Source: an uncultured Clostridia bacterium (lineage in GTDB: Bacteria > Bacillota > Clostridia > Christensenellales > UBA1242). From it: a DNA stretch of 64,000 bases. Location: the NCBI GenBank assembly GCA_944332315.1, contig CALVJT010000038.1, positions 2,024 to 66,023 on the forward strand. The letters run 5' to 3'. Shown here piece by piece: positions 33,676 to 35,010 of this stretch. Both the position numbers and the translations under genes were made by a program. Each line of letters begins with the position of its first letter. The stretch's first letter is position 1. The notes beneath the pieces were generated by a model, which did no database searches, had not been told where the DNA came from, and saw only the letters and a list, made by a program, of their open reading frames with translations.

Positions 33676-35010
33676 AGGTTAGTATACACCTAAATCTGTT
33701 GGTCACCTTGTCGTGACACAATCTTGACAAAGATTTCAAATTTGTCCTCAACTAAAGGGGAGACTTTAGTAGTTGCCTAGACTAAACTTAGGCAGTCGCG
33801 CCTCGTACTTAAAGTGGGCAGTCTCGTCCAGACTATAAGATGGATAGTGTGTTCTAAACTTTATTAGAATAGTTTGCCTGCACTGTAAAGGGCAGTCGAC
33901 TTAAGGCTTTAATTTAAGTAGTCAAGCATAGACTCTAAAATAACGCAGTTAACCTAAGGCTTCAAACAAGGTGTCTTGCTGTAGACTAATTCAGCACTCA
34001 AGCATAAGAGGTAAAAATTTGTAGTTCCTTATAACTTAAATAAGGCACCAGCCTTGTGTTTAGGCAAACTCTAGAAAAGAGTATAAAATCTCTCGGTAGT
34101 TGGATTAATCTACCACTTACTCAAAGTATAAATGAGTGCTGAACTTAAAGCATAAAATTAGTTTTCATGCCTAAGAAATTAAATTGGTATTGTTGCCGAC
34201 AATTATAAGCGGTACTCATACATAGAGTATAATGTGTATTCTCACTAAAGAATTAAAAGATAGTGTTCGTGCCGTAGAATTATCAAAGACGGTATTCATA
34301 CACAAGAATAAAAAAAGTGTGTTCATGCATAAGAACTAAAAATTTGTATTCATGTACAAGAATTATAAATGTGCATTCAAGCAAAAGAATTAAAAATTTG
34401 CGTTCGAGTCTAGAACTAAAAAGGGCATCTTGTAGATAGATTGTATCTATGTTCAGTCTTAAGAACTAAAAAGTAGAGTTCGCGATATAGAACTAAAATG
34501 TGTCGTTCATTTAGGAGAACTAAAAATCTAAAGCTCAAGCAAAGAGTAGAAAATAAGCCTCATGCATAAGAGCAAATTTGCACTCATATGAGAGAGGTCA
34601 AACTCATATTCAAGCAAAAGAATTAAAAATTTGTACTCATGTGTAAGAGTATAAAAAGCACGCTCATGCACAAGAGATAAAAAAGTGTATTCGCACTTTA
34701 GAATTAAAATTTAAGTATTCTCGCCATAAGAATATAAATTTGGCATCCCGCAAACAGATTGTGTTTGTGTTCATGCAAAGAACTAAAAATGTCTTTAAGC
34801 TCAAAAAGTAAAAATGAGTATTCAAGCAAAAGAATTAAAAAATTGTATTCATAACCAAGAATTAAAATTGGTTACCCAAGATAAGGGTATAAAATATCAA
34901 ATCTTTATTCGAGATTTCAAAATTGAATACATCGAACTGTAGATGTAAATTTCAGTGATGTATAGCTTAGTACATTATTAGCATCAAATTTATTCCATTA
35001 TTTGATGCCA
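33676..35010 (+). repeat. Tandem array of about 45-50 degenerate units (period near 27 nt), each a 4-7 bp stem, a 7-8 nt loop and an A-rich linker
   Basis: Hand-parsed examples:
- 34321-34336 GTTC/ATGCATAA/GAAC
- 34348-34363 ATTC/ATGTACAA/GAAT
- 34633-34652 GTACTC/ATGTGTAA/GAGTAT
- 34873-34889 TACCC/AAGATAA/GGGTA
- 34749-34769 CGCAAAC/AGATTGT/GTTTGTG
- 33852-33869 TTCTAA/ACTTTA/TTAGAA

The unit ATTCAAGCAAAAGAATTAAAAA(T/A)TTG recurs at 34375, 34608 and 34820. No ORF of 60 aa or more exists in any frame. Confidence 0.85.

Follow-up and report, generated by a model that had tools for sequence, protein, structure and literature searches.

The 64,000-nucleotide (nt) stretch of DNA analysed here (the window), from an uncultured Clostridia bacterium, carries directly downstream of tuf, the EF-Tu gene, a gene-free element of about 1.6 kb (33637-35234). 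Its core is an array of 27-nt repeat units, each of which most likely folds as an H-type pseudoknot, and this array appears to be the central, expandable part of a larger structured RNA that is conserved in a clade of uncultured gut Clostridia. We put at roughly 55% the probability that the element is a plus-strand structured RNA in which a chain of pseudoknots is flanked by end domains, most likely with a multivalent scaffold or sponge role. The original prediction, made by a model from the letters alone, had described a run of covarying mini-hairpins at 33676-35010; the limits of the feature have now moved outwards on both sides. The region has no open reading frame (ORF) of 60 amino acids (aa) or more, as was then stated; none in the ORF list between the tuf stop codon and trpS exceeds 53 aa.

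The repeat array itself is real and lies far above chance, as had been proposed. Tandem Repeats Finder (TRF) gives period-27 arrays at 34292-34400 and 34766-34867, a repeat search finds repeat families with 27/54-nt spacing across 34231-34894, and the 34-35 kb bin contains 18 copies of the motif YTC-N8-GAR, whereas each other 1-kb bin of the window contains 0-3. Identity at a lag of 27 nt is 0.444 in 34160-34900, compared with a median of 0.304, and this excess of 0.14 exceeds the maximum of 0.085 among 165 background windows. A period near 27 had been claimed for all of 33676-35010. It holds for about 34160-34900, whereas 33676-34160 has no 27-nt period in the autocorrelation and consists of small structures of varied size. 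The periodic part is the following feature, in which S2 is the second helix of the unit described below.

34160-34900, plus strand: array of 27-nt H-type pseudoknot units, supported by TRF, column-pair z-scores, permutation of S2, counts of paired cells and autocorrelation

The element holds about 25-40 units, fewer than the 45-50 first counted. The anchors TC-N8-GA and TC-N7-GA match 24 and 10 times, respectively, in the element of the window, and a generic pseudoknot scan that uses no anchor finds 39 compatible units where about 12 are expected by chance (12.2 in shuffles, with a maximum of 18; 7-23 in other 1.6-kb bins). In the same scan the unit pattern extends into the aperiodic 5′ half. 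Units are 60-85% identical to one another, share one orientation, in agreement with the original prediction, and are confined to a single locus in the 64 kb.

For analysis of the fold, units were anchored solely on TC-N8-GA, which yielded 146 units from seven species, and the first stem (S1) was counted over the 145 distinct units. Position 3 of S1 is Watson-Crick in 130 of these (shuffle null 75.6 ± 3.9) and position 4 in 102 (null 43.3 ± 5.1), where all four pair types occur; variants of the stem include ATTC/GAAT, GTTC/GAAC, TTTC/GAAA and CTTC/GAAG. The covariation of the predicted 4-7 base-pair (bp) stem is thus confirmed, whereas its length is not, because S1 has just 4 bp. Longer simple stems were rejected, since positions 5-9 flanking S1 show no covariation, and what looked like extensions is part of a second helix; the T and G conserved at these flanking positions are the 3′ end of the preceding S2b segment, as are the GTAG or GCAG starts formerly assigned to several units.

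This second antiparallel pairing was found in an all-against-all column scan, in which the z-score is 8.6 for columns 6-22, 7.9 for 5-23 and 5.0 for 7-21. Because the loop pairs with the segment abutting the next hairpin, the unit is most probably an H-type pseudoknot composed of S1 and S2, of which the hairpin is only one half, and the A-rich linker of the earlier description is not a free linker. The order of segments is S1a (4 nt), L1 (2, AA or AU), S2a (4, variable), L2 (2, AA), S1b (4), L3 (7, UAAAAAU) and S2b (4), and S2b directly abuts S1a of the next unit. S1 is usually RYUC/GARY and its 4 bp close an 8-nt loop of consensus A-A-G-C-Y-U-A-A, which lacks GGA and whose four central bases are S2a. 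The bases of L1, L2 and L3 are conserved, and S2 is free to vary, as can be seen in these units.

Array, plus strand: ATTC tc ACTA aa GAAT taaaaga TAGT, unit example
Array, plus strand: ATTC at ACAC aa GAAT aaaaaaa GTGT, unit example
Array, plus strand: ATTC aa GCAA aa GAAT taaaaat TTGC, unit example
Array, plus strand: GTTC at TTAG ga GAAC taaaaat CTAA, unit example
Array, plus strand: ATTC at AACC aa GAAT taaaatt GGTT, unit example

A perfect 4-bp S2 in the exact register is present in 50 of the 146 units, compared with 8.3 ± 2.5 when loops are permuted among units, and S2 is composed of Watson-Crick pairs only in 34 units, compared with 2.1 ± 1.5; the signal peaks sharply at one register. 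When S1 and S2 are taken together, 80.0% of cells are paired (62.6 ± 1.0 in shuffles) and the covariation score is 0.463 (0.168 ± 0.013 in shuffles; 0.06-0.18 in slid controls), and none of 500 shuffles reaches either value. Distinct pair types number 15 for S1 and 44 for S2, and the latter number indicates that the signal is not one inherited pair. The support for the pseudoknot is column covariation; Infernal and RNAalifold cannot represent it. S1 alone has a marginal predicted stability of -0.4 to -2.7 kcal/mol and would therefore need S2. A strain whose DNA is 96-99% identical to the window (L002) has, relative to 34350-34400, exactly two extra 27-nt units (56 nt; L002 3249-3330), in both of which S2a matches its own S2b. 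This suggests that the array evolves by duplication of whole units with pairing retained.

The strand on which the structure is formed can be judged from its wobble pairs. Where three pairs of an S2 helix are Watson-Crick, the remaining one is G-U 14 times and A-C once, and the 3′ domain of the element contains invariant G-U pairs. The minus-strand reading was rejected, because the G-U pairs would turn into A-C and the generic scan finds 25 pseudoknot-compatible units on that strand as against 39 on the plus strand. Together with the conserved promoter of tuf and the terminator that closes the element, these counts point to a plus-strand RNA, that is, to the strand of tuf already favoured in the original prediction, and the compensatory changes likewise agree with its preference for a structure over a dimeric DNA-binding site. 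It is extremely improbable that the repeats are a feature of the DNA with no RNA function, such as a minisatellite, protein-binding palindromes, or a REP-like or HUH single-stranded DNA substrate. TTC-N8-GAA is formally a DNA palindrome, and copy number shifts by whole units between strains; however, the half-sites covary rather than being conserved independently, the non-palindromic S2 also covaries with a G-U tolerance that is strand-specific, and the units lie in one orientation at one locus. Moreover, the unique domains that flank the array also have compensatory pairing, the element has a promoter-driven gene on one side and a terminator on the other, and there is no transposase or HUH gene among its annotated neighbours. 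The idea of an HUH substrate has no support.

The array is accompanied on both sides by conserved non-repetitive sequence, the parts of which are as follows.

33637-33659, plus strand: invariant 5′ motif AGACTTAACCCTGCAAAGTTTTC, which starts 10 nt past the tuf stop codon
33660-34159, plus strand: 5′ domain of aperiodic hairpins and pseudoknots, many of them linked by (T/C)AGTC
33720, plus strand: 5′ domain pseudoknot AATC-tt-GACA-aa-GATT-tcaaatt-TGTC
33894, plus strand: 5′ domain pseudoknot AGTC-g-ACTT-aa-GGCT-ttaattt-AAGT
34901-35196, plus strand: conserved 3′ domain of about 300 nt, from an 8-sequence alignment and RNAalifold
Within 34901-35196, plus strand: 3′ domain pseudoknot CATC-ga-ACTG-ta-GATG-taaattt-CAGT
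Within 34901-35196, plus strand: 3′ domain hairpin ATGTAT.GCTTAGTACAT
Within 34901-35196, plus strand: covarying stem of the 3′ domain that closes the invariant loop TTTATTCCATTA
Within 34901-35196, plus strand: invariant stretch of the 3′ domain, TAAGCATTGATAGGCAAT..AACCTAGACC, and also AATGTTTTGTTAA
35197-35234, plus strand: intrinsic terminator at the 3′ end of the element, a 12-pair stem with conserved ACCCATCAGGGTG, then a T-run

RNAalifold predicts 66 pairs for eight 3′ domains, 22 of which are compensatory (both sides changed with pairing kept), and 57 pairs for 33700-34000 of four 5′ domains, 19 of which are compensatory; the 5′ domain of the window aligns with those of L084, L093 and L095. 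These compensatory pairs on both sides point to a larger structured element, of which the array is the central part. The first pseudoknot of the 3′ domain has undergone a compensatory change between orthologues, with ACTG/CAGT in the window, L084 and L089 and ACTA/TAGT in L093 and L095. The 5′ motif is identical in the window, L084, L085-88, L089, L093 and L095 and is missing only in L094, and a T-run terminator is found at the same place in all relatives. ACCCTG of the 5′ motif is complementary to CAGGGT of a 3′ motif, and RNAduplex pairs the two in three species. A long-range helix closing the element was nevertheless left unproven, because both motifs are invariant; in addition, the pairing is weakened in L095, and L094 does without the 5′ motif.

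All sequences compared are metagenome assemblies. An identical EF-Tu is encoded on three other contigs, two with the same DNA and the third being that of L002 (GCA_964315415.1). A protein search with EF-Tu defines a clade at 86-95% identity, and every member fetched has a gene-free stretch right after tuf with the same layout: the 5′ motif, the 5′ domain, a region of TTC...GAA units of variable length, and the 3′ domain of about 300 nt with its terminator. Inspection of this locus in related genomes, a check named in the original prediction, found the element in all fetched members of this clade, with compensatory pairing. Its length varies as follows.

L084: element of about 1,460 nt
L085-88: element of about 1,970 nt
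L089: element of about 2,260 nt
L093: element of about 1,430 nt
L094: element of about 1,190 nt
L095: element of about 1,110 nt

The gene that follows the element differs by species, being trpS (minus strand), His_Phos_1 or radical SAM, which indicates that the element is linked to tuf rather than to what lies downstream. At about 80% EF-Tu identity, relatives (L090-92) have just 100-330 nt after tuf and no element. In an EF-Tu search of GTDB representatives, the best identity was 76% among the matches listed; the closest of these (72-76%; Clostridia and Oscillospiraceae metagenome-assembled genomes) have about 230-350 nt after tuf, and none of the 80 loci listed has more than 543 nt free of ORFs at this position; these loci, too, lack the element. 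A scan of JGI metagenomes with a 24-nt pattern from the 3′ domain gave one partial member (L096), and a scan of viral contigs gave none, which argues that the element is not phage-borne. At least one source record comes from a human (Hadza) gut metagenome assembly.

A second subtype of the element (L085 7204-9175, L089 7204-9465, L094 and L096) has another 5′ domain (ATGTTATGGACTAGAATATATGCGAGAGTTTCTCTCGG...), mostly AAGCCTAA loops and, in many units, a hairpin insertion of 30-80 nt at the position of L3. In L089 a segment several hundred nt long seems to be duplicated internally, since 7480-7650 resembles 8620-8790. In L094, the genes right after the terminator of the element (8599-11068, plus strand) code for a radical-SAM protein and for a methyltransferase that faintly matches TRM13 (tRNA 2′-O-methyltransferase); they may be RNA-modifying enzymes, and they occupy this position in L094 only.

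The transcript that carries the element probably starts upstream of tuf. The plus strand of the window contains rpsL, rpsG, fusA (29941-32013) and tuf (32422-33627; EF-Tu of 401 aa, with Pfam GTP_EFTU and EF-Tu domains D2 and D3), and the next gene 3′ of the element is trpS on the minus strand (36030-37103). Two features lie between fusA and tuf.

32151-32179, plus strand: sigma-A-type promoter TTGACA-17-TATACT upstream of tuf, with 11 of 12 consensus positions
32180-32421, plus strand: leader of tuf, conserved and about 240 nt long, with boxes GGGATAGCATCC, TCGCGAG, GATCGCGAC and AATAGCGCTATC

Both promoter hexamers, TTGACA and TATACT, are kept in 6/6 aligned relatives, and the promoter is likely to be the start of a transcript carrying tuf and the element. 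A terminator scan of the plus strand from 33627 to 35197 found none, and from the tuf stop codon to trpS the only terminator-like site on this strand that bounds the element is at 35197-35224 (12 pairs, then a T-run). The transcript would accordingly comprise leader, tuf and element, about 3 kb in all; an alternative start possibly lies inside the conserved 5′ motif.

Conservation of the leader was observed in a MAFFT alignment of the fusA-tuf intergenic regions of six species. It contains palindromic TCGCGA boxes (TCGCGAG ... GATCGCGAC) in addition to the box AATAGCGCTATC, and a box TATCGCGA(G/C) also occurs in the element's 3′ domain, both in the window (around 35150) and in L093 and L095. 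These features could reflect a structured leader or a contact between the 5′ and 3′ parts of the transcript. No Rfam match was obtained for the promoter and leader region (32151-32421). Further upstream in the fusA-tuf spacer, a hairpin TTTGCTTTGG-N16-CTAAAGCAAA (32045-32085, plus strand), which may be a terminator or attenuator of fusA, is kept in 6/6 aligned relatives; the spacer is 890 nt long in L085 as against about 400 nt elsewhere. The 800 nt between the terminator of the element and the 3′ end of trpS (35230-36030) are gene-free, have 21% G+C and include a palindromic terminator-like site at 35843-35879. This stretch is unconserved in the relatives L089 and L093 and was rejected as a part of the element.

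The position of the element raises the alternative that it is a cis-acting 3′ untranslated region (UTR), which protects tuf mRNA from exonucleases (3′-to-5′ or 5′-to-3′), RNase Y or Rho, or enhances translation of EF-Tu. We regard this as rather unlikely. The element begins 10 nt past the tuf stop codon with no terminator between, its linkage to tuf is retained while downstream genes change, and compact pseudoknots are mechanical roadblocks; furthermore, the three-pseudoknot domain in the 3′ UTR of tobacco mosaic virus (TMV) boosts translation of the upstream ORF about 8-fold (10.1101/2025.10.12.681957). Nevertheless, one terminator hairpin is normally enough, and an additional 1.1-2.3 kb on a gene that is among the most transcribed would be costly. 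A mere barrier would not need unique, highly conserved 5′ and 3′ domains whose loops are invariant, and close relatives and the other bacteria examined do without the element.

No known RNA family accounts for the element, and the statement that it is not a CRISPR array, a REP/BIME element, a riboswitch or a known large non-coding RNA (ncRNA) has stood. Rfam 15 cmscan gave no match at the gathering score in the whole 64-kb window, among others none to the models of OLE, GOLLD, ROOL, HEARO, raiA, tmRNA, RNase P and 6S, and only chance-level matches at E ≤ 10 for the elements of the window and L089; ARAGORN found no tRNA and no tmRNA in the window. OLE, GOLLD, ROOL and raiA are, like the element, large, structured and lineage-restricted bacterial RNAs found by comparative analysis, but they have unique multi-domain folds, whereas the element is a repeat array that is longer and variable in length. 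CsrB/RsmZ and CrcZ are ncRNAs with many repeated small structured or A-rich motifs, which titrate an abundant RNA-binding protein; such sponge small RNAs are 100-400 nt long and carry GGA hairpin loops or CA motifs. In contrast to CsrB/RsmZ, the element is 1.1-2.3 kb long and composed of pseudoknot units, and membership of the CsrB/RsmX/Y/Z family was rejected because its loops lack GGA and no Rfam match appears at E ≤ 10. A CRISPR array was ruled out by the contiguous diverged units without spacers. REP/BIME elements are likewise clustered small palindromic units of intergenic or 3′ regions, and REP325, from which naRNA4 derives, is transcribed and acts with a protein (PMC4550694). However, REPs are dispersed genome-wide with the stem kept and the orientation alternating, whereas the present motif lies in one 1-kb bin of 64, in the same orientation and with covarying stems and pseudoknots, and this origin was ruled out.

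Tandem pseudoknots were found in the literature only in viral UTRs (TMV and FMDV, the virus of foot-and-mouth disease) and in type III antitoxins (PMC4627078). The viral UTRs contain consecutive small H-type pseudoknots (PK1-3 of the upstream pseudoknot domain in TMV) beside a specialised end domain, as the element does, and the analogy is one of architecture, homology not being claimed. The viral domains have 2-4 units (the FMDV 5′-UTR pseudoknots vary from two to four) in genomes of eukaryotic viruses, whereas the element has tens of them on a bacterial chromosome and no tRNA-like end.

Type III antitoxins (ToxI, CptI and TenpI) are closer in that they are head-to-tail repeats, each a small H-type pseudoknot; their processed units are held by loop-stem triplexes or A-minor contacts, and those of ToxI and CptI are 36 and 45 nt long, with CptIN coming from a gut Clostridium relative (PMC4627078). 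The chain could by analogy be cut by a dedicated endoribonuclease, encoded elsewhere in the genome, into 27-nt pseudoknots that neutralise this enzyme or another protein, and it would then be an inhibitor of very high capacity. A cut at the junction of S2b and S1a would free complete pseudoknots, and the A-rich loop is shared with these antitoxins. Of the features of such systems, the element has the tandem pseudoknot repeats but neither the few identical repeats nor the downstream toxin. The antitoxins have 2-6 near-identical repeats of 34-45 nt directly upstream of the toxin gene and are cut into monomers, whereas the element has 25-40 diverged 27-nt units with a unit-specific S2, lies after tuf, and has large conserved unique 5′ and 3′ domains. 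The genes found 3′ of the array (trpS, which is on the minus strand, His_Phos_1 or radical SAM) include no toxin gene, and PADLOC detected no ToxN-, CptN- or AbiQ-like protein among the neighbouring genes. We consider this explanation quite improbable.

It is also very improbable, in our view, that the element is an aptamer array in which each mini-pseudoknot binds a ligand, like the H-type pseudoknot riboswitches with A-rich tails of the preQ1-I or SAM-II type, and the RNA buffers or stores a metabolite or ion. The preQ1-I aptamer (34 nt) has a short P1, a loop-to-tail P2 and an A-rich L3, a topology like that of the unit; L1, L2 and L3 are conserved while S2 varies, and tgt is present in the window (59726-60862). 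On the other hand, preQ1-I (RF00522) and other pseudoknot riboswitches gave no cmscan match at E ≤ 10, L2 is just AA and does not contain the specificity cytosine of preQ1-I, and the array lies in a 3′ UTR rather than a 5′ leader, with no regulated gene after it.

In a keyword search of the literature, the coverage of which is incomplete, neither an array of pseudoknots from bacteria nor an RNA 3′ of tuf was found described. We rate the element as a probable new RNA class, with an architecture apparently unreported for a cellular RNA, its RNA nature being deduced from the sequence and the literature being incompletely covered.

How such an RNA might work can be outlined in a model. The element would be made as a 3′ extension of tuf mRNA, from the tuf promoter or possibly from within the 5′ motif, and its level would then follow EF-Tu expression. 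A 7-nt A-rich L3 across a 4-bp S1, with a 2-nt L1 across S2, is the geometry of minimal triplex-stabilised pseudoknots such as those of Luteovirus frameshift signals and ToxI/CptI, and the A-rich L3 may, like that of other minimal pseudoknots, occupy the minor groove of S1. Since S2b of one unit runs without a break into S1a of the next, the helices can stack head to tail, and they could form a quasi-continuous rod with about 8-10 bp for each unit and a few hundred bp overall. The combination of a unit-specific S2 with uniform loops and S1 suggests that selection acts on the in-register fold of an intact array and not on identical processed monomers. The reverse is true of type III antitoxins, which act as monomers and for that reason have identical repeats. 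Copy number differs two-fold between species and by two units between strains, which argues for a bulk or multivalent role and not for a precise single fold. Tens of equivalent pseudoknot faces would thereby be offered to an abundant protein, and the unique end domains would serve in processing, stability or anchoring.

Several points weigh against this reading. The pseudoknot is predicted from covariation, and S1 alone is marginal. The units are a mixture of paralogues and orthologues, so that covariation counts are not independent and the shuffle statistics, for units related by duplication and descent, overstate independence; the 44 pair types of S2 reduce this concern without removing it. 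When the register is fixed, a perfect S2 is missing from about a third of the anchored units: some of them match TC-N8-GA by chance, and in others the register is shifted or, for the L085/L089 type, L3 contains a long insertion. Transcription and any processing of the element, and its co-transcription with tuf, are all inferred, and the neighbouring genes give no clue to a protein partner. Metagenome assembly could affect exact repeat counts, although identical or near-identical copies in independent samples argue against gross misassembly. The role of an intact multivalent scaffold or sponge RNA, taken on its own, has in our estimation somewhat less than an even chance. A more specific version is possible but doubtful, in which a kilobase rod of up to about 40 coaxially stacked pseudoknots, addressed by S2 and made together with EF-Tu, acts as an intact scaffold or platform, possibly for EF-Tu itself or for another translation factor. 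It would echo the viral 3′ pseudoknot and tRNA-like domains that engage eEF1A and ribosomes.

If the element is transcribed as proposed, it would be among the longest structured bacterial ncRNAs outside rRNA and, to our knowledge and by the searches run, the first cellular RNA of tens of tandem pseudoknots. It is intriguing to ask how near-identical mini-folds avoid misregistered folding, to which the unit-specific S2 "addresses" suggest one answer, what partner binds tens of equivalent pseudoknot faces, and why they are tied to the EF-Tu gene. The chain may also offer a natural design principle for RNA nanostructures, and its variable copy number could mark strains of this uncultured gut Clostridia lineage.

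Elsewhere in the window, a gene for a SpoIVB peptidase indicates a spore-forming organism of the Clostridia type. A giant ORF of 4,784 aa (14258-28612, plus strand) has no Pfam match at E ≤ 0.001. Among the loci for which the upstream flank was recovered, ORFs of 4,699-4,766 aa, some with a faint Glug match, lie upstream of rpsL in L085, L086, L087, L089, L093 and L094, and the giant ORF is absent from L090 and L091, relatives at about 80% EF-Tu identity. It thus co-occurs with the RNA element, for which shared ancestry alone may be the explanation. Finally, a 174-aa protein (3313-3837, minus strand) has a ShosA-like match in PADLOC (E = 1.2e-7), and two large BspA-type leucine-rich-repeat proteins are encoded at 8681-11872 and 53172-55250, both on the plus strand.

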